A stretch of DNA of 64,000 nt from Bacteroidales bacterium (GCA_024400835.1 JAKSMC010000008.1:5082-69081), one strand, 5' to 3'. Shown: positions 1 through 8,660, counted from the first letter of the stretch. The notes: generated by a model from the sequence alone, not told the origin. A program made the numbers and translations.

Positions 1-811
1 TGGCCAGCTGCTGTTCCTCCTCAATGCGCTGCTGTTCGAGGTCGAAGACGCTCTGCTCGGATTGCAGGATGCTCATCTGCTGGTTGTCAACGCTCATCCG
101 CGATGATTCAAATGAGGACTGCTGCTGCAAGTAGCTGTTCTTGGAAGACTGGTACTCTGACAGTGAAAGCATTCCTTTGGCATACAGTGACGAGTCCATG
201 GAAAAGAGACTGTGTGCCGAAGCGAGCTGTTTTCTGCTGATCTGCAACTGGTTGACGGTCTTTTGCAGCAGACTCCTTTGCGATGAAATTTGTTTGCGGA
301 TGACCTTTATTTTGCGGTTGTGGTAGTCGGTTTCGATGAAATGCCGGTAATCCGTCAGGGCCTTGTCGAATGCGGTGTAGGCGGATTGGATGTCGCCCAA
401 TTGCAGGGACGAAAAATTTGTGGATTGGATGTCGCCCGTTTGTATGGACGAAAAATTTTTCGTCCGTACAATGTCGCGCAGCATCGTTTTCACCAGCATT
501 ACGTCCTCCAGACGGGCGGTATTGTGGATGACGGCCAGCAGGTCGCCCTCGCGCACCAGCTGTTTCTCGGCCACGGCGAGGGTGTCTATTTTGCCGGTGG
601 TCATCGCCATCACGCCGGCGGGCAGGTTCTCGGTGGTCACGGTGATGGTGGCGGGCAGGATGTCCGGGTACTTGAGGAAGTAGCTGCCCACGAATAGGCC
701 GGCCACCACGATGAAGATGACGCTGATGCCCGCACGCACTATCCAGCGCGGCGGCCTGCCGAGGATCTCTTGTACTTCCTCGCTGCGGAGATTTATGTTG
801 TCGGTTGGCAT
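1..811 (-). CDS. HlyD-family secretion adaptor (membrane-fusion) protein, N-terminal part; the gene runs off the window start
   Basis: It is absent from the ORF track because it leaves the window. The minus-strand ATG at 811..809 gives MPTDNINLRSEEVQEILGRPPRWIVRAGISVIFIVVAGLFVGSYFLKYPDILPATITVTTENLPAGVMAMTTGKIDTLAVAEKQLVREGDLLAVIHN..., followed by Q/S-rich coiled-coil. This is a TM anchor plus lipoyl-like hairpin, typical of bacteriocin-exporter HlyD partners. It lies downstream of the C39-ABC gene on the same strand. Confidence 0.8.
   Translation of the reverse strand, partial: MPTDNINLRSEEVQEILGRPPRWIVRAGISVIFIVVAGLFVGSYFLKYPDILPATITVTTENLPAGVMAMTTGKIDTLAVAEKQLVREGDLLAVIHNTARLEDVMLVKTMLRDIVRTKNFSSIQTGDIQSTNFSSLQLGDIQSAYTAFDKALTDYRHFIETDYHNRKIKVIRKQISSQRSLLQKTVNQLQISRKQLASAHSLFSMDSSLYAKGMLSLSEYQSSKNSYLQQQSSFESSRMSVDNQQMSILQSEQSVFDLEQQRIEEEQQLA
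383..460. repeat. In-frame 39-bp tandem duplication (2 units, 34/39 identical) inside hlyD, overlapping a perfect 20-nt palindrome at 446..465
   Basis: Unit 1 (383-421) is ggattggatgtcgcccaattgcagggacgaaaaatttgt. Unit 2 (422-460) is ggattggatgtcgcccgtttgtatggacgaaaaattttt. They encode NFSSLQLGDIQSA / NFSSIQTGDIQST. The palindrome is ggacgaaaaatttttcgtcc. Confidence 0.85.
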
Positions 812-818
812 TTTTTTA

Positions 819-881
819 GGGAATAGGTAATAGGGAATAGGGAATAGGGAATAGGTGATGGGGGTAGGGGTTAGGGATTGG
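819..881. repeat. Heptamer array A (GGGAATA/GGTAATA orientation on the + strand, degenerating to GGGGTAG/GGGTTAG)
   Basis: The sequence reads gggaata ggtaata gggaata gggaata gggaata ggtgatg ggggtag gggttag ggattgg. It fills the space between the hlyD start (811) and the four-helix-bundle gene and overlaps that gene's stop codon (871-873). Confidence 0.95.
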
Positions 882-1227
882 ATTTGGCGGTTTTTATGCG
901 TGAGGTGAGTAATTTTATCAGTTCGGAGCAGTCGTTGCTGATGCTTTCGAAGGCGATGTTGTCAATGTATTCTGATTCGTGTAGTAGTTCTAACCAATAT
1001 TCCGTTTCTGCAGCTTCCTTGAGCGCAATGGAAGATTTTGAAACGAAGTCCGCCTTAGATTGTGCGTAGGTGCTCTCAGTCAAATTGGCCCCGATGCTTG
1101 TTCCGCACCGCAGCACTTGCTTGGACATCACAAACTCCTTCCTCTCCTCAATCAGAAACTTATACAATCGTATAACCCTCAATGCAAAAGCCTTCGCTTT
1201 TTTCATAATAATTCCTTTATTTTCCAT
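871..1227 (-). CDS. Four-helix-bundle protein (23S rRNA intervening-sequence protein / S23-like family)
   Basis: The 118-aa ORF contains ...AFALRVIRLYKFL...VLRCGTSIGANLTESTYAQSKADFVSKSSIALKEAAETEYWLELL.... The GxSIGANxxE and EtxYWLxL motifs are characteristic of this family. An alternative start is M8 at 1206. Confidence 0.8.
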   Translation of the reverse strand: MENKGIIMKKAKAFALRVIRLYKFLIEERKEFVMSKQVLRCGTSIGANLTESTYAQSKADFVSKSSIALKEAAETEYWLELLHESEYIDNIAFESISNDCSELIKLLTSRIKTAKSNP

Positions 1228-1289
1228 GTTTTTTTCACAATAACGTGAAATAAAAGTTAATATTGTATTAAAAAATATTTTTTTAAAAA

Positions 1290-1353
1290 CTATTACCTAC
1301 CACTTATTACCTATTACTTATTACTTATTACCTATTCCCTATTACCTATTCCC
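1290..1353. repeat. Heptamer array B (CTATTAC/CTATTCC orientation), inverted relative to array A
   Basis: Nine heptamers read ctattac ctaccac ttattac ctattac ttattac ttattac ctattcc ctattac ctattcc. Positions 1331-1353 (cctattccctattacctattccc) are the exact reverse complement of 819-841. The last codons and stop of the ABC gene (LGNR*) are encoded by the array. Confidence 0.95.
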
Positions 1354-3675
1354 TAACTCCAGCTGGTTCCTCACCAACTCGAAGTACTCGCCTCGCAGGG
1401 CGGTGAGTTCCTCGTGTGTGCCCGTCTCCGTGATGCGGCCGTGGTTGATGACCACGATTTGGTCGGCGTTCTTCACCGTGCTCAGGCGGTGCGCCACCAC
1501 GACAACCGTCCTTCCCTTGAAGAACTGCTGGAGGTTCTCCATAATCACCTTCTCGTTGTTGGCATCCAAGGCGTTGGTTGCCTCATCGAAGAAGAGGTAG
1601 TCGGGATTCTTATAGACGGCGCGGGCGATGAGTATGCGCTGGCGCTGGCCCTGACTGATGCCTTTGCCCTCCTGTCCTATCTTGGTGTTGAAGCCTAACG
1701 GCAGCCCGTCTATCATCTCCTGGATGTTGGCCACGCGCACGGCGTTGAGCAGGCGCTGGGTGTCGATGTGCTCGTCACCCACGGCGATGTTGCGGGCGAT
1801 GGTGTCCGAGAAGATGAATCCGTCCTGCATCACCGCGCCGCAGCGGTCACGCCAGAAGCGGTGACTGATGTTCTGCAGCCCCGTCTCGCCCACGCGGATC
1901 TCACCCTTGTTGGGCGGGTAGAAGCCGAGCAGCAGTTTCACCAAAGTGGTCTTGCCGCTGCCGCTCATCCCCACAATGGCCGTCACCTTGCCCTCCGGAA
2001 TGTGCAGCGACAAATCGTGCAGCACATCCTCCCCCAACTCATCATACCGAAATGTTATATTATTGATGTCGAGAGACGCGGCACGCCACGTCCCCACAAA
2101 ATCCCTATTCCCTATTACCTGTTCCTTATTCCCTATTACCTGTTCCCTATTACCTATTACCTGTTCCCTATTACCTATTACCTGTTCCCTATTACCTATT
2201 ACCTGTTCCCTATTACCTATTCCCTCTTCCCTCTCCTCGTCCTCGCGATTATGAATCTCCCCCAGCCGTTCCAGACTGATTTTGGCATCCTGCGCCGACT
2301 GGATGAAGCCTATCATCTGGTTGATGGGGGCGTTGAGCTGGCCGATGATGTACTGAACGGCGGTCATCATACCCAGGGTCATGTCGCCCTTGATGACGGC
2401 GGCGGCGGAGACGAAGGAGATGAGGATGTTCTTGGTCTCGTTGATGAAGAACGCGCCCGACTGCTGGTACTGGCTGAGCGCCAGGCCCTTGATGCTTACG
2501 CGGAAGAGCTTGGCCTGTATGTTCTCCCATTCCCAGCGTTTCTGCTTCTCGCAGTTGTTGAGCTTGATTTCCTGCATTCCCGTGATGAGCTGGTAGAGGT
2601 TGCTCTGCTCGGCGGAGGCCTGCGCGAAACGCTTGTAGTCCAACTCTTTTCGTTTTTTCAGGAATATGGTAATCCACAGCACGTAGAGGATGGAGGCCAC
2701 TAAAAAGACGAGGAACAGCTTGAGGCTGTAAAGCGCCAGCACGATGCTGAACACGATGAGGTTGACGAACGAGAACAGCGTGTTGAGCGTGGTGGAGGTG
2801 AGGAAGGCCTCGATGCGGCTGTGGTCGCCGATGCGCTGCATAATGTCGCCGATCATCTTGGTGTCGAAGAAGCCGATGGGCAGCTTCATCAGCTTGATGA
2901 GGAAGTCGGAGATGATGGAGATGTTGATGCGGGTGCTGATGTGCAGCAAGATCCACGAGCGGATGAACTCAACGGCGGTCTGCGCTAAGTAGAGGGTGAG
3001 CTGGGCGATGAGGATGACGATGACGAAGCTGAGATTGTTGTTGCCGATACCGTAATCCACGATGCTCTGCGTGAGGAATGGGAAGAAGAGCTGCAGCAGC
3101 GTGCCGAGCAGCATTCCGAGGAAGAGCTGCACGATGAGTTTCTTGTAGGGTTTGAGGTATTGGAGTACGAAGCGCAGTTTGGTCTTGTCCTGTTTTTCGT
3201 CTTCCTGTTTGTAGAAATCCGGGGTGGGTTCCAACAGCAGGGCGATGCCCTCGTCTTGGCCGTCCGTTTTGGTGCTGAGCCATCCTGACAGGAATTCCTG
3301 CACAGTGAATTTGATGAGACCCTGTGCGGGGTCAGCCACATAGACCAGTGAACTGTGATCAGTGAGCTGTGAACTGTCTTTGGGAGGTTTGATGTCGTAA
3401 ACGACCACGAAGTGGTTCTGTTTCCAGTGTACGATGCAGGGTAGGGGTGCCTCGCAGAGCTGTTGGAACGAGATGTGCACACCGACGGTGCGGAAGCCGA
3501 TGCCCTCGGCGGCGGTGCTGATGCCGAGCATACTCACCCCCTCGCGCCCGATGAAGCACTTCTGCCGGAGCGTCTCCAACGAATAGTGCTTGCCGTAGTG
3601 CTTGGCAATCATCCGCAGGCACGTCGGCCCGCAGTCCATCGCATCGAGCTGCTGATAAAACGGAAACTTACCCAT
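1342..3675 (-). CDS. Peptidase-C39-domain bacteriocin/RiPP ABC exporter (peptide cleavage/export permease-ATPase)
   Basis: The 777-aa product has an N-terminal C39 domain (QLDAMDCGPTCLRMIAKHYG...HWKQNHFVVVY...VADPA). It then has a six-TM ABC membrane domain and an NBD with Walker A GMSGSGKTT, signature ISQGQRQR, Walker B LFFDEATNALD and H-loop VVVAHRLST. Confidence 0.95.
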   Translation of the reverse strand: MGKFPFYQQLDAMDCGPTCLRMIAKHYGKHYSLETLRQKCFIGREGVSMLGISTAAEGIGFRTVGVHISFQQLCEAPLPCIVHWKQNHFVVVYDIKPPKDSSQLTDHSSLVYVADPAQGLIKFTVQEFLSGWLSTKTDGQDEGIALLLEPTPDFYKQEDEKQDKTKLRFVLQYLKPYKKLIVQLFLGMLLGTLLQLFFPFLTQSIVDYGIGNNNLSFVIVILIAQLTLYLAQTAVEFIRSWILLHISTRINISIISDFLIKLMKLPIGFFDTKMIGDIMQRIGDHSRIEAFLTSTTLNTLFSFVNLIVFSIVLALYSLKLFLVFLVASILYVLWITIFLKKRKELDYKRFAQASAEQSNLYQLITGMQEIKLNNCEKQKRWEWENIQAKLFRVSIKGLALSQYQQSGAFFINETKNILISFVSAAAVIKGDMTLGMMTAVQYIIGQLNAPINQMIGFIQSAQDAKISLERLGEIHNREDEEREEGIGNREQVIGNREQVIGNREQVIGNREQVIGNKEQVIGNRDFVGTWRAASLDINNITFRYDELGEDVLHDLSLHIPEGKVTAIVGMSGSGKTTLVKLLLGFYPPNKGEIRVGETGLQNISHRFWRDRCGAVMQDGFIFSDTIARNIAVGDEHIDTQRLLNAVRVANIQEMIDGLPLGFNTKIGQEGKGISQGQRQRILIARAVYKNPDYLFFDEATNALDANNEKVIMENLQQFFKGRTVVVVAHRLSTVKNADQIVVINHGRITETGTHEELTALRGEYFELVRNQLELGNR
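2104..2229. repeat. Heptamer array C inside the ABC exporter ORF: six 21-nt units of three heptamers each
   Basis: The unit cctatta cctatta cctgttc occurs as three perfect copies (2146-2208) flanked by three variant units. It is translated on the minus strand as GIGNREQV IGNREQV IGNREQV IGNREQV IGNKEQV IGNRDFV, in the linker between the TM domain and the NBD. Confidence 0.95.
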
Positions 3676-3680
3676 ATCAC

Positions 3681-3785
3681 CTATTCCCTATTACTTATTC
3701 CCTATTACTTATTCCCTATTACTTATTACTTATTACCTATTACTTATTACCTATTACCTATTACCTATTACCTATTACCTGTTCC
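3681..3785. repeat. Heptamer array D: 15 tandem heptamers forming essentially the whole intergenic spacer
   Basis: The array reads ctattcc ctattac ttattcc ctattac ttattcc ctattac ttattac ttattac ctattac ttattac ctattac x4 ctgttcc. It is bounded by the ABC start codon (3675) and the SPASM-gene stop (3786). Confidence 0.95.
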
Positions 3786-4898
3786 CTAATCTTCCCCCAA
3801 AATCTCCTTATTCAGTTTGTCAATCCGTTCCTTGTCCGGCACAAATCCCGTTTCGCGGGAATACGTGCCGCACTCCTCTACAGGCACGTAGCCTTCCTGG
3901 CCTTCCCAGAGGCAGATGTAGGGGTTGTAGGTACACTTGGCGGGTTGGGAGTAGATGTTTTCGGGATCTTTGATGAAGGCGCGGCAGTCGGTACACATAT
4001 AGCGGAACTCGCAATCCTTGCAAACGTCAATCTTGTCCTTATTGATGAACCAGAGATCCTTGAATCCCGGCTTGTTGATAGCCTCCTCCAAAGTGGTATC
4101 CCTGATGTTGCCGTAGCTTTTGGCCATAGCCGGACAGTTCTTGATGTTGCCCTCGGCATCAATGCACACCTTGCGGTTGAGGCAGGTGTTGTGGCACTGG
4201 GCTTCGGTGAAACATTCAATTGTTCTACAAAAATAATAAGGATGAATATTGCCGCAACTTATTGAGTTATCTATTTTCTCTTTAGTAATAATTATAGTAT
4301 TTTCTCCTTCTTGAATTATTTTATTGTAGTCAGAATTTGTAACAACAATTTTGCTAATAGAGGAGTTGTTTCTCCTCCAAGTTAAAAGTTCAGCTTCAGA
4401 TGCTATATTTGAAGCATTTATGACATACTCGAAATATTTCATACCTACATTACTGGCATAGTGTTGAATTTCAGAGATTTTTTCCGATTCAAAACGGCTA
4501 AAAATCAAAAATTGTATATTAACACAATTCAAACGGAGAAGTTCACTAAGTATGTTTTTATAAAATTTATAATTGAAATTGTTTAATACCAATATTGCAT
4601 TGGTGACATGTGCTGGATACGCCCAGGTCAGATCCATTTTGGGGAAATTTTGCAACTCATTGTCTTCTATCTCAAATAGATACTCTTCTTTAATAAGGCT
4701 ATTAATAAAAGAAGAAATGTTTTTTTGAGAGAACTTATCATATAGACCTATTGTTAGGGAATCAATCACATTATTATCATTGAATAAGCCAGTAATACCA
4801 TTTGGTATAAATATATGTTTGTCTCGCTGTAGATCGTATATACAACTTCTTCCATAACCTACCACAAGTCTACAGCATTCGAATAATCTATACTTCAT
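3786..4898 (-). CDS. SPASM-domain peptide maturase of the 'grasp-with-spasm' type (no canonical radical-SAM CX3CX2C motif visible)
   Basis: The 370-aa product starts MKYRLFECCRLVVGYGRSCIYDLQRD.... Its C-terminal Cys-rich SPASM-like region is CHNTCLNRKVCIDAEGNIKNC...CKDCEFRYMCTDC...C. The N-terminal half has no CxxxCxxC. The gene is adjacent to an ATP-grasp gene. Its 3' ~430 nt are GC-rich and its 5' ~680 nt are AT-rich. Confidence 0.8.
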   Translation of the reverse strand: MKYRLFECCRLVVGYGRSCIYDLQRDKHIFIPNGITGLFNDNNVIDSLTIGLYDKFSQKNISSFINSLIKEEYLFEIEDNELQNFPKMDLTWAYPAHVTNAILVLNNFNYKFYKNILSELLRLNCVNIQFLIFSRFESEKISEIQHYASNVGMKYFEYVINASNIASEAELLTWRRNNSSISKIVVTNSDYNKIIQEGENTIIITKEKIDNSISCGNIHPYYFCRTIECFTEAQCHNTCLNRKVCIDAEGNIKNCPAMAKSYGNIRDTTLEEAINKPGFKDLWFINKDKIDVCKDCEFRYMCTDCRAFIKDPENIYSQPAKCTYNPYICLWEGQEGYVPVEECGTYSRETGFVPDKERIDKLNKEILGED

Positions 4899-5091
4899 AA
4901 TTAGACAGATTAAAATTTAGAATTTTTGAAATGGTTTTATAAAAAGTAAACACCTTTTCCACTTCATTTGAATATTGTTTGATTTGTTCTTCGTTTGAAC
5001 TAGTGCTTTGGTCGATTTCCCAAAAATGTGCTATTACAGGATAGCGTTCGGGATTGTCCATTATTTCTTTCGTTAAGGGGGTTTCTTTCAT
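4888..5091 (-). CDS. Small acidic hypothetical protein (67 aa), translationally coupled between the ATP-grasp and SPASM genes
   Basis: Its start shares an ATGA overlap with the ATP-grasp stop (5088-5091), and it overlaps the SPASM gene start by 11 nt. No recognisable motif and no GG leader are present. Confidence 0.5.
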   Translation of the reverse strand: MKETPLTKEIMDNPERYPVIAHFWEIDQSTSSNEEQIKQYSNEVEKVFTFYKTISKILNFNLSNYEV

Positions 5092-6047
5092 TTCAATAAA
5101 TAATCTGCGATTGTTTTTTCTAAATGATAATTACAATTCCTGCTAAGCCATCCAAATTGTCCAATGGGATTGACTTCAAGAAAAACATACTGGTAGTCGG
5201 GAGTGACGATGATATCGGCGGATCCAGAGGTTAGTTTTAGTTGTCGATAAAGTTTAAGAAGTTTTTTCTCGTACCATAAAGGTAGTTTGTATGGTACGTT
5301 TCTATTGGGATTATCACTATCATAGTTCCGGAAATCCACTTGTGTCTTTTTATTATTTTGACTGAAGATTGCCATACTATAGATTTTGTCATCAAGAAAA
5401 AAACTTCGAATCTCATATTTCTTTTCAATATATTCTTGAAAAAGAGAAGGAACGAATGAAGCTGGAAGTTTCGCAATCTTGTAGTCGTTTAGCAGGACAG
5501 TTGAGGACGAGAACCTGTATTCCTTCCCGTTAATAATAGCATTTCCTAATGGAGCGACAGTGGATTTCGTAATAATTTTCCCGAATTTTTTTGCAAACTC
5601 TTCCAAGTCAGATTTACTACTAGTTACTAAGGTTGCAGGTATATTAATTCCTAAATGTTTGCAATTGTACAAAACATTCATTTTTTCAAGAAAATTATCA
5701 GAAGCACAATTGATATTACTAGTGAAATTCAAACTTTCCAGAAAAGTTTTAACTGGCGCCACATGTTTGTTCCACAAATACGTATTTACGCTGGGGTATT
5801 CTGATTTGCATTGAGTAAAAAAATTCAGCATACCTCTTCTGTACCAATATTTATCTTTTTCTGACACAGTATGCTGGTTGAAATCGACTATCACGTCATT
5901 GTCTGACACCAAAAGTTTCACGGATTCGATATCATAAAAATCATTTATTTCTATCAAGCAATCAGTATGACCATAGTAATTAAGCCATCGTACAACCTCG
6001 CTTGAGGATTCATCATCACTAACAGTTTGTATATATATATTCCTCAT
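5088..6047 (-). CDS. ATP-grasp RiPP maturase ('grasp-with-spasm' / MvdD-like graspetide ligase)
   Basis: The C-terminal half contains ...KIITKSTV...YEIRSFFLDDKIYSMAIFSQNNKKTQVDFRNYD...ADIIVTPDYQYVFLEVNPIGQFGW..., an ATP-grasp fold signature as in microviridin-type ligases. The start is chosen at M19 (6047), which abuts the upstream stop (6049-6051); the longest ORF would start at 6101. Confidence 0.82.
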   Translation of the reverse strand: MRNIYIQTVSDDESSSEVVRWLNYYGHTDCLIEINDFYDIESVKLLVSDNDVIVDFNQHTVSEKDKYWYRRGMLNFFTQCKSEYPSVNTYLWNKHVAPVKTFLESLNFTSNINCASDNFLEKMNVLYNCKHLGINIPATLVTSSKSDLEEFAKKFGKIITKSTVAPLGNAIINGKEYRFSSSTVLLNDYKIAKLPASFVPSLFQEYIEKKYEIRSFFLDDKIYSMAIFSQNNKKTQVDFRNYDSDNPNRNVPYKLPLWYEKKLLKLYRQLKLTSGSADIIVTPDYQYVFLEVNPIGQFGWLSRNCNYHLEKTIADYLLK

Positions 6048-6048
6048 A

Positions 6049-7200
6049 TTATAAGTATTGCGTATGTCCCCACCTAAAGACACAGCCCTGGTCTTCAGCA
6101 AATCGAATCTTTGCTCTGTCTGCTTCTAAAGAACAAATACAAAACTTTTTTCGAAGACCGTTAATTCTATCGTCTGGAATGATGGAGGCTAACGATGAGA
6201 CACCTACGGAACGATCAACAAAGAAAATTGCCATATTTTTTTCTGAGCAAAATAAAGGATTTTTACTCAAATAAGTGTCATACATAAAAGCATACAATCT
6301 TGGATGGAGGTTCCCTTTCTCTATTTCTTCAATGGCATATTTTTCAATATAGGCATACATACTGTCTTGATGGACATAGAAAGATTCCAATAGACCTTGT
6401 GTGAGTCTGTTTGTGTTCATTTCGTATAATATCGTGTCGATATGGTCAAATTCGATGTAAATAGTGTCGCCATTGGGCATTACGGATGTCAAAGGCCTAT
6501 CCCCAATAATTCTGGTCAATGCCGCTGAATCCCTAAATACTTTTGATTTGAAATCCAAGCAAGAAATTCCTAATTCGTCAAACAGTTGATTGTCATCAAT
6601 GCCGAGAATCTTTTGGCCGGGGAATCCGTATTTTTGAACAAGTTGCTGATATTTCATATCCCATACAAGGAGGCTGTCTTTATACGGGTTGTTTTCACTG
6701 TTTTCATATTCCTCCAGCACCATTTTTTGATCTGCTATGCAAAGGTCATAAATTTGGCACAGGTAGTCCGTGCTGATTGAATGAAGATAATATCGGTGCC
6801 TTTGCTTTCCTTCTTCTAAATTTTCATAAACCTGAAAATCTTTTAGAACTTCTGATTCCGCCCACATTGGAATGAATGCGAGGTGTTTGGACCGAAGGCC
6901 GTACTTTACGCCTTTATGAAGGTAGTATTCATAATTGTGCTTCGGATAATATGGAAATCTGTCCTTTGAAGTGTAAAAAGAAATTTGTGCTGCATTAAGC
7001 AAGTCGTTTACATAATTGAATTCAAAGTTGTCAAAAGCAAGGTCGTAATAATATAAGCAGCTATCCGCATTGTTATCCACAAAGAATGCATTTTCGGCTT
7101 GAGCTATCCACTGATGATATTGCCAATAATTGTCCCCAGCATATGGCTGTGCCACAAGGTACAAAGGGAACAACAATACAGTAATAAGTTTTTTTAGCAT
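6049..7200 (-). CDS. Hypothetical exported protein (383 aa) encoded between the precursor and the ATP-grasp gene
   Basis: The N-terminus MLKKLITVLLFPLYLVAQP looks like a signal peptide. The protein is Tyr/Asp-rich with no motif I recognise. It is tightly packed in the operon. Confidence 0.65.
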   Translation of the reverse strand: MLKKLITVLLFPLYLVAQPYAGDNYWQYHQWIAQAENAFFVDNNADSCLYYYDLAFDNFEFNYVNDLLNAAQISFYTSKDRFPYYPKHNYEYYLHKGVKYGLRSKHLAFIPMWAESEVLKDFQVYENLEEGKQRHRYYLHSISTDYLCQIYDLCIADQKMVLEEYENSENNPYKDSLLVWDMKYQQLVQKYGFPGQKILGIDDNQLFDELGISCLDFKSKVFRDSAALTRIIGDRPLTSVMPNGDTIYIEFDHIDTILYEMNTNRLTQGLLESFYVHQDSMYAYIEKYAIEEIEKGNLHPRLYAFMYDTYLSKNPLFCSEKNMAIFFVDRSVGVSSLASIIPDDRINGLRKKFCICSLEADRAKIRFAEDQGCVFRWGHTQYL

Positions 7201-7220
7201 AAACTTTGATTTTAATTTGT

Positions 7221-7260
7221 CAAGTGAGAAATTGACCAGAAACGGTCAGTTTCCCACTTG
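7221..7260 (-). terminator. Stem-loop immediately downstream of precursor gene 1 (attenuator or stabiliser; no U-tract)
   Basis: The sequence caagtgagaaattgacc-agaaac-ggtcagtttcccacttg forms a ~17-bp interrupted stem. It sits between the precursor stop (7278) and the next start (7200). Confidence 0.45.
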
Positions 7261-7277
7261 ATTTAAATTTTCATAAT

Positions 7278-7511
7278 CTACTTTTTATCTTCGGGGCATG
7301 GGATAGTGTAAGTATCGGATAGAACTTGTCCAAAACCACTTAGAGAATCATCGTAAATGTCACATTCGGTTGATATTATATTACCATTTTGATCTTTGTT
7401 ATATATTGTCGTTTTTCTTTTCGACCCACCTCTGATTTTCAAAGGAGAATCAATTGATTGAGATTTATAGTCTTCTAATTTTTTATTGTTGATTGTTTGT
7501 ATTTTTTTCAT
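7278..7511 (-). CDS. RiPP precursor peptide 1 (double-glycine leader; candidate graspetide/SPASM substrate)
   Basis: The sequence is MKKIQTINNKKLEDYKSQSIDSPLKIRGG | SKRKTTIYNKDQNGNIISTECDIYDDSLSGFGQVLSDTYTIPCPEDKK. The 29-aa Lys-rich leader ends in GG, which fits a C39 cleavage site. The 48-aa core is rich in Ser/Thr (10), Asp/Glu (8) and Lys (5), with 2 Cys. The start is taken at MKK (7511); the ORF track starts 2 codons earlier. Confidence 0.7.
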   Translation of the reverse strand: MKKIQTINNKKLEDYKSQSIDSPLKIRGGSKRKTTIYNKDQNGNIISTECDIYDDSLSGFGQVLSDTYTIPCPEDKK

Positions 7512-7517
7512 AACCAA

Positions 7518-7740
7518 ATAGTTTAAATGGTAAAACTCCTCTTTCCCGCGGGTGTGTCGGCACTTTGCGCGGCACTTTCGGGTATGTCATCACAACGGGA
7601 AAAATGGTATCTTTGCCGCCTGATTTGCAGTGCCATCGCGTTACAAACATCACGATATATGCGACCTCGGTGCTTTTGAGCAGGGTACATCGTACTAAGA
7701 ATGCGACTTCCTTGGCGATGTCCCTGCGGGGGCACCTGTT
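7518..7740 (-). other. GC-rich non-ORF segment upstream of precursor 1, paralogous to 11899..12120 upstream of precursor 2
   Basis: Collinear similarity blocks have matching spacing and matching distance (about 71-75 nt) to each precursor ATG: 7586-7634 vs 11969-12016, 7678-7691 vs 12055-12068, and 7717-7733 vs 12097-12113. The segment also contains the direct repeat cggcacttt N3 cggcacttt at 7557-7580. Confidence 0.6.
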
Positions 7741-7743
7741 TTA

Positions 7744-7778
7744 GGGAATAAGTAATAGGTTATAGGTAGTATGTGATG
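7744..7778. repeat. Heptamer array E (GGGAATA orientation, degenerate, 5 units)
   Basis: The array reads gggaata agtaata ggttata ggtagta tgtgatg. Positions 7744-7759 are the exact reverse complement of cctattacttattccc, which is present twice in array D (3687-3702 and 3701-3716). Confidence 0.8.
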
Positions 7779-8088
7779 AGTTTACTTATTCACCTGTTTA
7801 CGTCCTGCCAACGGTCTTTACGCACCACGATGGCAGGACTTCAATCAAGGAAGTGATTCTTCCCCAACCAATAGAGGTCGGGCAGCAAATAAGGATTCAG
7901 GTTGTCATCTTTCATTCATTCGTCATTTTTAGTTAGCGGTTGTCTTATTCAGTGTGTTAACCTTTTACGGTCCTCTTCATCGGCCGCGCCCAGCCCGTAA
8001 AAAGCGAGTGCAATAATATTAAAAACTTTTGTATATAGGTCGTTTTTCTGTTTTTTACTTTAATGATTATCAAATAGTTAGCGATTGC

Positions 8089-8535
8089 TTAAGTAATAAA
8101 ACAGCCTATCGAGAAGCGGAATTTTCGGAGAAAATCCGATGGGGGATGGTGGGGATTTCGGAGAAATTTGATGAGGCCCTGCGCGGGGTCCGCCACATAG
8201 ACCAGTGAACTGTGATCAGTGAGCTGTGAACTGTCTTTGGGGCGTTTGATATCGTAAACGACCACGAAGTGGTTCTGTTTCCAATGCACGATGCAGGGCA
8301 ATGGTGCCTCGCAGAGCTGTTGGAACGAGATGTGCACGCCGATAGTGCGGAAGCCGATGCCCTCGGCGGCGGTGCTGATGCCGAGCAGGCTCACGCCCTC
8401 GCGGCCGATGAAGCACTTCTGCCGGAGCGTCTCCAACGAATAGTGCTTGCCGTAGTGCTTGGCAATCATCCGCAGGCAAGTGGGGCCGCAATCCATGGCA
8501 TCGAGTTGCTTGTAAAACGGGAATTTTTTACTCAT
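8089..8535 (-). CDS. Stand-alone peptidase C39 domain: a truncated paralog of the 5' end of the ABC exporter gene (functional status unknown)
   Basis: The 148-aa ORF has its first ~123 aa nearly identical to the exporter N-terminus (MSKKFPFYKQLDAMDCGPTCLRMIAKHYG...HWKQNHFVVVY...VADPAQGLIKF). The nucleotide homology 8166-8535 vs ~3318-3675 is roughly 90% by eye. It then diverges into an unrelated 24-aa tail. The catalytic Cys, His and Asp positions are retained. Confidence 0.55.
   Translation of the reverse strand: MSKKFPFYKQLDAMDCGPTCLRMIAKHYGKHYSLETLRQKCFIGREGVSLLGISTAAEGIGFRTIGVHISFQQLCEAPLPCIVHWKQNHFVVVYDIKRPKDSSQLTDHSSLVYVADPAQGLIKFLRNPHHPPSDFLRKFRFSIGCFIT
8138..8157. repeat. G-rich heptamer-like patch at the C39-paralog breakpoint, flanked by a 10-bp direct repeat
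   Basis: The patch gatgggg gatggtg gggatt resembles the degenerate end of array A. It is flanked by ttcggagaaa at 8124-8133 and 8157-8166. Homology to the full-length exporter gene ends here. Confidence 0.6.
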
Positions 8536-8577
8536 TGATAGTTACTCATTACTAAATCCTAATTGTTAATCCTCTCC
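8536..8577. repeat. Heptamer array F (degenerate, TATTACC orientation) directly upstream of the C39 paralog
   Basis: The sequence reads ..tagttac tcattac taaatcc taattgt taatcct... It occupies the same position relative to the C39 start codon as array D does for the full gene. Confidence 0.55.
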
Positions 8578-8583
8578 CCAAAT

Positions 8584-8660
8584 CTATTTGTTCAACTCAG
8601 CAATCCTCTTCTTGTCGGGCATTCCCTCAAGCCTGTCCGAGAACTCCAAATCATGTATTT
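8584..8660 (-). pseudogene. Remnant of the 3' end of a SPASM maturase gene (last ~20 codons plus stop)
   Basis: The minus-strand translation ...LEFSDRLEGMPDKKRIAELNK* aligns with the C-terminus of the 3786..4898 product (...TYSRETGFVPDKERIDKLNKEILGED*). It has the same order (SPASM end, heptamer spacer, C39 start) as 3786-3675. Confidence 0.5.

Follow-up and report, generated by a model that had tools for sequence, protein, structure and literature searches.

Why does the base composition of one intact gene switch abruptly in the middle of its reading frame? The gene in question encodes GwsS, the SPASM-domain maturase of a grasp-with-spasm locus. It occupies positions 3786 to 4898, on the minus strand, of a 64,000-nucleotide (nt) stretch of DNA from a Bacteroidales bacterium (GCA_024400835.1 JAKSMC010000008.1:5082-69081). 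This whole stretch is called the window, and coordinates refer to it unless another locus is named. The open reading frame (ORF) is an intact frame of 370 residues and runs uninterrupted across the switch. We propose, with a probability of about 0.8, that the 3′ edge of an interchangeable 3.3-kb cassette (7537-4213), exchanged by recombination among rumen Bacteroidales, runs through the GwsS gene.

Along the window, G+C is about 0.52 up to position ~4200 and about 0.29 beyond it. A two-segment likelihood fit to the ORF placed the change point between 4209 and 4210 (2-lnL support interval, 4202-4220) and separated a 3′ part with a G+C of 0.524 from a 5′ part with 0.293. Support for this step (2dLL 58.7) compares with a maximum of 14.4 over 500 codon shuffles, and the ORF has the fifth strongest internal G+C step among the 1650 ORFs of at least 250 residues in the genome. 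G+C at the third codon position (GC3) rises from 0.14 in residues 201-229 to 0.81 in residues 230-260, which places the step at codon 229/230; for the two whole halves, residues 1-229 and 230-370, the values are 0.25 and 0.74. Because GC3 itself jumps at the junction, the step sits in synonymous sites and amino-acid content is not its cause. The AT-rich side extends beyond the gene, and a second change point, between 7535 and 7536, marks the far end of an AT-rich stretch of 3325 nt (4213-7537; G+C 0.337).

Both sides of the step are compositional outliers in the source genome (G000; 3.0 Mb, 47% G+C, median GC3 of long ORFs 0.60). The cassette genes lie at the low extreme (GC3 0.25-0.39, the 0.2-3.5th percentile of the genome) and the SPASM segment, ABC and HlyD genes at the high extreme (GC3 0.74-0.80, the 93rd-99th percentile). 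Expression-linked codon bias was ruled out as the source of the high GC3 of this backbone: the EF-Tu gene of the same genome has a GC3 of only 0.40, so the codon bias of highly expressed genes here does not take the form of a high GC3. Biased gene conversion and foreign origin are possibilities for the cause of the GC-rich exporter block (window 1-4212). These results bear on an original prediction, made from this DNA alone. Its hand counts of 34/60 G+C in 4141-4200 and 12/60 in 4261-4320 were exact, and the switch it had placed at ~4205-4215 in a continuous frame agrees with the fitted change point. The AT-rich block that it traced upstream of the GwsS 5′ part through 7520 runs on to 7537. 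The constant block it had described as GC-rich is GC-rich, but rather than being an ordinary background it is itself an outlier on the high side.

The composition change point coincides with a homology breakpoint. We compared the window with loci of other species in its genus-level group, hereafter the clade; these are uncultured rumen Bacteroidales represented by metagenome-assembled genomes (MAGs) and sampled from cattle, yak, goat, red deer and reindeer. In blastn, the GC-rich part aligned with clade loci at 80-91% nucleotide identity, and every alignment stopped at 4211/4212, that is, at codon 229/230 (the 3′ breakpoint was counted in clade loci where that part is assembled). The junction falls at one codon, 'FTE(A/S)Q.HNTCLNRK', in all clade members examined, some of which have the same AT-to-GC step. 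Similarity resumes at 7534-7538 in most clade loci, ~20 nt upstream of the precursor start. The same two breakpoints are therefore shared by many genomes around unrelated inserts, of which there are at least 15 types. The SPASM segment (423 nt) forms the 3′ end of every cassette copy, and the next gene is ABC, HlyD or another cassette; cassettes occur ahead of ABC, between it and HlyD, or one after another in tandem.

Protein identities follow the same division. Residues 230-370 of GwsS are 83-95% identical within the clade and 59-78% identical in distant Bacteroidota, and the ABC exporter is 82-84% and 44-45% identical, respectively. Residues 1-229 are 22-29% identical within the clade, with the exceptions of L036 (99%) and L037 (48%), and 25-29% in distant Bacteroidota; for the ATP-grasp protein the values are 31-45% and about 33-35%. 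Within the clade, the N-domain and the ATP-grasp protein are no more alike than in cross-phylum comparisons. This contrast is present across the family, so at the protein level alone it is no proof of recombination. In clade loci, GC3 is 0.21-0.54 for the N part; for the C part it is 0.43-0.77, or 0.64-0.77 if L025 is left out. The nearer outgroups have 0.18-0.29 and 0.33-0.38, and in nine further Bacteroidota family members the N/C difference in GC3 is at most 0.15. Judged on these sequences, a GC3 step this large is specific to the clade.

Divergence of the insert is decoupled from divergence of the flanking segment. An independent metagenome contig, L036, carries the same cassette as the window with 5 mismatches in 1825 nt (6037-4213), versus 43 mismatches in 474 nt for its SPASM segment, the first of them at 4161 (Fisher p = 4e-25). 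Between these two loci, the slowly evolving SPASM domain is 33 times more diverged than the fast-evolving part, a reversal that would be explicable by recombination only. The two are 100% identical over 4301-4162, junction included. What lies downstream also differs in L036: next to the SPASM gene comes a homologue of window 8167-7538, and after it a second, unrelated cassette. The same 5′ flank, consisting of an inter-cassette region (region X) and a conserved leader element, is thus found before one cassette, A, in the window and before a different one in L036. In L042, the second cassette of L036 adjoins the ABC gene and a four-helix-bundle gene, and the backbone is 93-95% identical to the window; L036:2993-7162 and L042:83-4623 suggest a further tailoring step in that cassette variant. 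The window SPASM segment was also considered as a simple hybrid of the L036 and L042 copies, and this was rejected since it is 90-91% identical to each.

L041 and L036 have unrelated cassettes (N-domain, 22% amino-acid identity) and SPASM segments that are 96.3% identical at the nucleotide level. The differences between these segments are all synonymous, and homology begins exactly at the junction. Across 94 cluster representatives, N-domain identity and C-domain identity correlate with r = 0.18, and 22 pairs combine a C-domain identity above 97% with an N-domain identity below 40%. At least 15 N-domain types occur in the 43 proteins that share at least 85% C-domain identity with the window. 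Two cassettes occur on a single 204-kb contig of G061, the second between ABC and HlyD. Their SPASM copies are 80% identical, with similarity only from the junction onward.

A module swap had been proposed in the original prediction. The AT-rich block is swappable and rests on a conserved GC-rich block, as proposed, but the junction is not a single scar, since it recurs clade-wide. The constant block, taken to be SPASM plus exporter, is conserved and GC-rich; the SPASM segment, however, is more than an exporter appendage, as each cassette copy has it for its 3′ end. A check for a domain boundary at the junction had been suggested, and the step coincides both with a homology and recombination boundary and with a domain boundary. 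Whether the best hits of the two halves come from different lineages had been proposed as a further check; both sets fall in one pool of rumen Bacteroidales sequences. One pool and one shared step had been named as the outcome that would make the step a family property rather than a trace of recombination. Formally that is the outcome obtained, yet recombination is still shown by the discordant divergence of L036 and L041.

How could such cassettes be exchanged? The cassette would hold everything that defines the product: precursor, secreted accessory protein, ligase, small putative chaperone and GwsS N-domain. The 423-nt SPASM segment, the ~165-200-nt leader and the exporter genes beyond would act as homology arms, and homologous recombination or gene conversion in these arms would replace, stack or delete whole cassettes. 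We infer homologous recombination as the mechanism. Homology would end at the same codon, the domain boundary, in every locus because the cassettes are too diverged to align mutually. Likewise, the composition step would arise because the two sides have separate histories, AT-rich cassettes on the one hand and a GC-rich recombining backbone on the other. A second locus in the same genome was considered as a source for gene conversion and rejected, as the genome has one GwsS and the remnant at 8165-8621 only.

Several points weigh against cassette exchange. Neither a recombinase nor the mechanism was directly observed, and all sequences are metagenome-assembled. The contigs of several MAGs start or end inside the SPASM segment, and assemblers can create chimeras at conserved repeats. 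The conserved-C/variable-N contrast is a property of the whole family, and the identity discontinuity is partly constraint, not recombination. A word-index search of 5.8 billion clustered proteins turned up no donor lineage for the AT-rich cassette. Lastly, the two SPASM copies of G061 are diverged enough that homogenisation is not pervasive.

A broader form of the proposal extends to the composition itself. The SPASM segment and leader could be the arms of a natural plug-and-play platform for peptides that are synthesized ribosomally and modified post-translationally (RiPPs), in which the G+C contrast is made by recombination, through GC-biased gene conversion in the recombining segments and AT drift of the unique cassettes, with the same rule for other mosaic genes of the genome. 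We consider this extension doubtful, though it deserves more weight than the explanations that follow.

Integration of a foreign AT-rich operon from a low-GC donor, occurring once and fusing the operon to a resident SPASM gene, would agree with a cassette composition in the bottom 0.2-3.5% of the genome. It would also agree with the truncated SPASM-end/ABC-start duplicate upstream, as expected after integration or rearrangement. Such a one-off acquisition is nevertheless improbable, because at least 15 cassette types share the junction, which is found in every clade genome examined. In the word-index protein search, the N-half (residues 1-228) retrieved only two clusters, versus 1337 for the C-half. 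In both clusters, its only relatives there, the N-half is already joined to that same GC-rich SPASM segment, and the search found no low-GC donor with this cassette.

Could the pattern arise without recombination? One vertically inherited gene might combine a hyper-constrained SPASM domain with host-like or 'accurate' codons and a fast N-domain that drifts, with the rest of the cassette, to AT. Such rate heterogeneity predicts the reverse of what L036 displays, where the same cassette is 99.7% identical while SPASM is 91% identical. It also does not predict near-identical synonymous sites in SPASM segments on unrelated cassettes (L036/L041). Nor does constraint track composition: the constrained ATP-grasp enzyme nonetheless has a GC3 of 0.33, the poorly conserved C-terminal tail still has 0.63, EF-Tu stands at 0.40, and nine distant family members lack the step. 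The explanation draws on the conserved-C/variable-N contrast seen throughout the family and on several moderately distant relatives with a mild C-domain GC3 excess (0.10-0.16). The L036 and L041 data have already largely refuted it, and we hold it to be very improbable.

Least probable of all is an assembly or binning artefact, a contig that joins the DNA of two organisms at the shared SPASM segment into a chimeric ORF present in no cell: the nameable relatives are all uncultured MAGs or metagenome contigs, and several MAG contigs begin or end within the segment, which marks the region as hard to assemble. However, a k-mer chimera would have its join within the conserved segment, and the AT/GC boundary is found at the edge of that segment. 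The identical junction also recurs, in an intact full-length ORF, in assemblies made independently, with different assemblers and from different samples (L036, L037, L038, L039, L041, L042, L014 and the 204-kb contig of G061), and the window matches L036 at 100% across the junction (4301-4162). The pairing of a given SPASM/exporter copy with a given cassette in a single MAG could be wrong.

The protein encoded across the junction belongs to the GwsS family (TIGR04193; 268.4 bits against a cut-off of 175, with residues 4-332 on profile positions 3-333 of 342). Its 3′ segment (residues 230-370 plus stop; 3786-4212, minus strand; G+C 0.52) contains the Cys-rich SPASM domain (PF13186, 27.6 bits; cut-off 21.5) and a clade-specific tail. 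In a 91-sequence alignment, C239, C293, C296, C302, C305 and C322 are invariant, and C245, C255 and C343 are nearly so. The 5′ segment (residues 1-229; 4213-4898, minus strand; G+C 0.29) is a hypervariable N-domain in which only C9 and C215 are nearly invariant. As had been predicted, the protein contains no CX3CX2C motif, and the 91 sequences have no conserved one. A Pfam scan of GwsS gave no match to PF04055 (Radical_SAM). GwsS thus has neither of the two features, CX3CX2C and PF04055, by which radical-SAM SPASM enzymes such as SuiB, PqqE and AlbA are recognized.

An AlphaFold2 model built with the 91 sequences had a predicted local distance difference test (pLDDT) score mostly above 90 over residues 1-200. 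The top Foldseek match of this model was SuiB, an enzyme combining a RiPP recognition element (RRE) with radical-SAM and SPASM domains, and the match was weak (E = 1.2e-3, TM 0.22). The stand-alone RRE protein TbiB1 was covered over its whole length (86-90 columns, prob 1.0, TMt 0.67-0.70; the matching GwsS residues were not reported), and further matches were to TIM-barrel pieces. A sequence search of solved structures returned no meaningful relative of GwsS. The N-domain is predicted to consist of an RRE-like leader-binding fold and a partial or degenerate β/α barrel that lacks the radical-SAM cluster motif. The model is consistent with leader-peptide binding by the N-domain. Plausibly, then, the swapped half is the leader-recognition half, which has to match the precursor, and the retained half is the Fe-S domain.

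The cassette (4213-7537) comprises, on the minus strand, the precursor, a 383-residue secreted protein, the ATP-grasp enzyme, a 67-residue ORF and GwsS residues 1-229. The putative precursor peptide, the first cassette gene (7278-7517; likely start ATG at 7511), has a double-glycine leader; its translation reads '...LKIRGG' followed by 'SKRK...', and it is 59% identical in L037. The 383-residue protein (6049-7200) has a signal-like N-terminal sequence and no Pfam or NCBIfam match. It is 53% identical in L037 and 31% in L016, and it may be a candidate member of the 'cluster 23' accessory family. The ATP-grasp peptide maturase GwsG (5088-6101; GC3 0.33) matches TIGR04192 at 247.3 bits (cut-off 230); its L036 counterpart is 100% identical, and those elsewhere 31-58%. 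The 67-residue ORF (4888-5091; GC3 0.29) lies directly upstream of GwsS, with which it overlaps, and is 98.5% identical in L036 and 42% in L037. Profile scans gave no family match for this ORF; by its position, it putatively takes the place of the small 'LPL-family' putative chaperone in branch-5 graspetide loci (PMC8939145). Among other Bacteroidales, a low-GC MAG (G045; CAINEZ01, 'uncultured Bacteroidetes bin-7249') has at least seven GwsS matches on separate short contigs, which points to many cassettes per genome or population and to heavy assembly fragmentation at GwsS.

On the other side of the junction, the conserved GC-rich backbone continues into the C39-peptidase/ABC exporter gene (1342-3675, minus strand; Pfam C39, ABC_membrane and ABC_tran; GC3 0.80, 99th percentile). 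The spacer between SPASM and ABC is filled by a tandem array of a TATTACC-type heptamer (3676-3785; TRF period 7, 16 copies). In several relatives (e.g. L037, L021 and L040) this spacer is ~10-25 nt long and has no array. Heptamer arrays (TATTACC/TATTCCC) occur in the exporter operon spacers of the window at 817-855, 1290-1355, 2102-2232 and 3675-3788, and just before the window at G000:C59:4482-4579; one of the arrays sits in frame within the ABC gene. A strict pattern search of the 3-Mb genome found one array besides those of this locus. The locus is chromosomal and adjoins housekeeping genes, and it is not on an integrative and conjugative element (ICE). Profile scans detected no integrase or transposase domains in the ORFs flanking the locus, and the combination of a dedicated recombinase with sites at the cassette ends that would make it integron-like is not present.

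The leader element, or 5′ arm (7538-7741, minus strand), is a conserved, GC-rich segment (G+C 0.53) of ~165-200 nt immediately upstream of cassettes in many clade loci, and it may be a promoter, an operator or a leader RNA. Its alignments have many invariant columns. In nhmmer searches most clade copies scored 150-187 bits, a few loci gave weaker partial matches, and L020 had two copies. Copies lie at L020:2290-2444 and 7246-7411, L036:2802-2964 and L017:458-622, and a partial one at G000:C27:16290-16393. The leader precedes both graspetide and radical-SAM cassettes, with a full copy before a radical-SAM cassette in L020. The window itself has a second, radical-SAM precursor; a leader copy upstream of it was sought and discounted, as nhmmer gave only a 45-nt, 9-bit match. 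The leader was also rejected as a known RNA, with no Rfam match and only 6 covarying pairs and a weak covariation term in RNAalifold, and no sigma-70-like promoter was found in the element. Past the junction, synonymous identity within the clade is 0.88 over the first 10 codons, versus ~0.6 elsewhere, and this excess is confined to the clade and its near relatives. A conserved nucleotide site after the junction was considered and set aside: the motif is lost in nine distant family members, and a second block is equally conserved.

Region X (7742-8164, minus strand) lies beyond the leader. In L036 it is located between the SPASM stop of one cassette and the leader of the next, and the window from 8167 to 7538 is 89.7% identical to L036 2319-2963. 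It is followed by a truncated duplicate of the constant block (8165-8621, minus strand), containing the last ~55-90 nt of a SPASM gene, the spacer and the first ~370 nt of a C39-ABC gene. This remnant is 92% identical over 362 nt to window 3308-3669 and aligns to the SPASM-end/ABC-start junction of L019, L021, L037 and L042. It is a scar left when the same arms were rearranged earlier. The ABC 5′ fragment, though truncated, still forms a 148-residue ORF (8089-8535, minus strand) with a complete-looking C39 domain (PF03412, 103 bits).

The strongest within-ORF G+C steps of the genome belong to two secreted proteins with type IX secretion system (T9SS) tails, G000:C26:32791-36798 (minus strand, 1336 residues) and G000:C17:31616-35374 (minus strand, 1253 residues). 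G+C changes from 0.39 to 0.62 in the first and from 0.37 to 0.58 in the second. The two have different AT-rich enzyme modules at the N-terminus and homologous GC-rich C-terminal halves, with 88% identity over 175 nt from the step and 99.8% identity over the last 417 nt. The pattern is as in GwsS, a variable AT-rich module on a shared GC-rich one.

RiPP diversification is usually credited to variable core peptides and conserved enzymes. At this locus, the substrate gene, the ligase and the recognition half of a second enzyme would move together and be fused each time to a conserved Fe-S domain at one codon. The junction immediately before 'FTE(A/S)Q.HNTC...' would then be a naturally validated place for constructing hybrid GwsS enzymes. 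Such exchange would account for the extreme precursor diversity reported in Bacteroidota graspetide loci and would explain the fragmentation of these loci in metagenome assemblies. GwsS is also of biochemical interest as a SPASM domain without a radical-SAM cluster. According to a 2026 review, recombination that mixes and matches maturase types is not commonplace in RiPPs (PMC13500794).

The locus is of the grasp-with-spasm type (TIGR04192/TIGR04193), which is 'branch 5' of Makarova et al. 2022 (PMC8939145) and, in passages of PMC13097080, graspetide 'group 14'. It shares the gene set and order of such loci, which run from precursor and accessory protein, through ATP-grasp and the small protein that lies directly upstream of the SPASM one, to C39-ABC and HlyD, and both window maturases exceed the curated cut-offs. 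Unrelated precursors in closely related genomes were already noted by Makarova et al. (PMC8939145), and the words 'recombination' and 'cassette' are absent from the searched text of that paper. Passages of a preprint place gwsG/gwsS on Porphyromonas gingivalis ICEs (bioRxiv 10.64898/2026.08.04.741601). The passages of this preprint and of PMC13097080 contain no mention of an intragenic constant/variable junction in GwsS, a composition step, a leader element or cassette exchange. Unlike the loci on P. gingivalis ICEs, the window locus lies on the chromosome.

Three known systems provide parallels to the exchange. In the cyanobactin pat/tru pathways of Prochloron, Donia, Schmidt and colleagues reportedly found near-identical ends around a sharply different central block, with transitions inside genes, and the pattern is said to have been interpreted as pathway-module swapping by homologous recombination. 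Those pathways belong to another RiPP class and phylum, and there the tailoring chemistry changes around a shared precursor scaffold, whereas here it is the precursor and the enzyme recognition part that are exchanged, with the Fe-S domain and exporter left in place. We know of no composition step described for pat/tru. Polymorphic toxins (CdiA-CT/CdiI after VENN; Rhs tips) have a razor-sharp constant/variable junction within an ORF at a conserved peptide motif. Their variable part moves with partner genes and often differs in G+C, and orphan or truncated copies lie nearby. In those toxins, however, the variable part is the C-terminus and belongs to a toxin-immunity pair, while here it is the N-terminus of a biosynthetic enzyme together with a substrate gene. 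In the pneumococcal blp bacteriocin-immunity region and similar class II loci, a variable peptide/accessory cassette lies between conserved regulatory and transport genes. These loci are reshuffled among strains by homologous recombination, and one C39-ABC exporter serves several peptides. Their boundaries fall between genes, whereas one boundary here falls inside an enzyme gene, at a domain boundary. The locus is a variant of known bacteriocin/RiPP cassette exchange, and what is distinctive is the boundary inside the GwsS gene, as a result of which every swap makes a hybrid enzyme.

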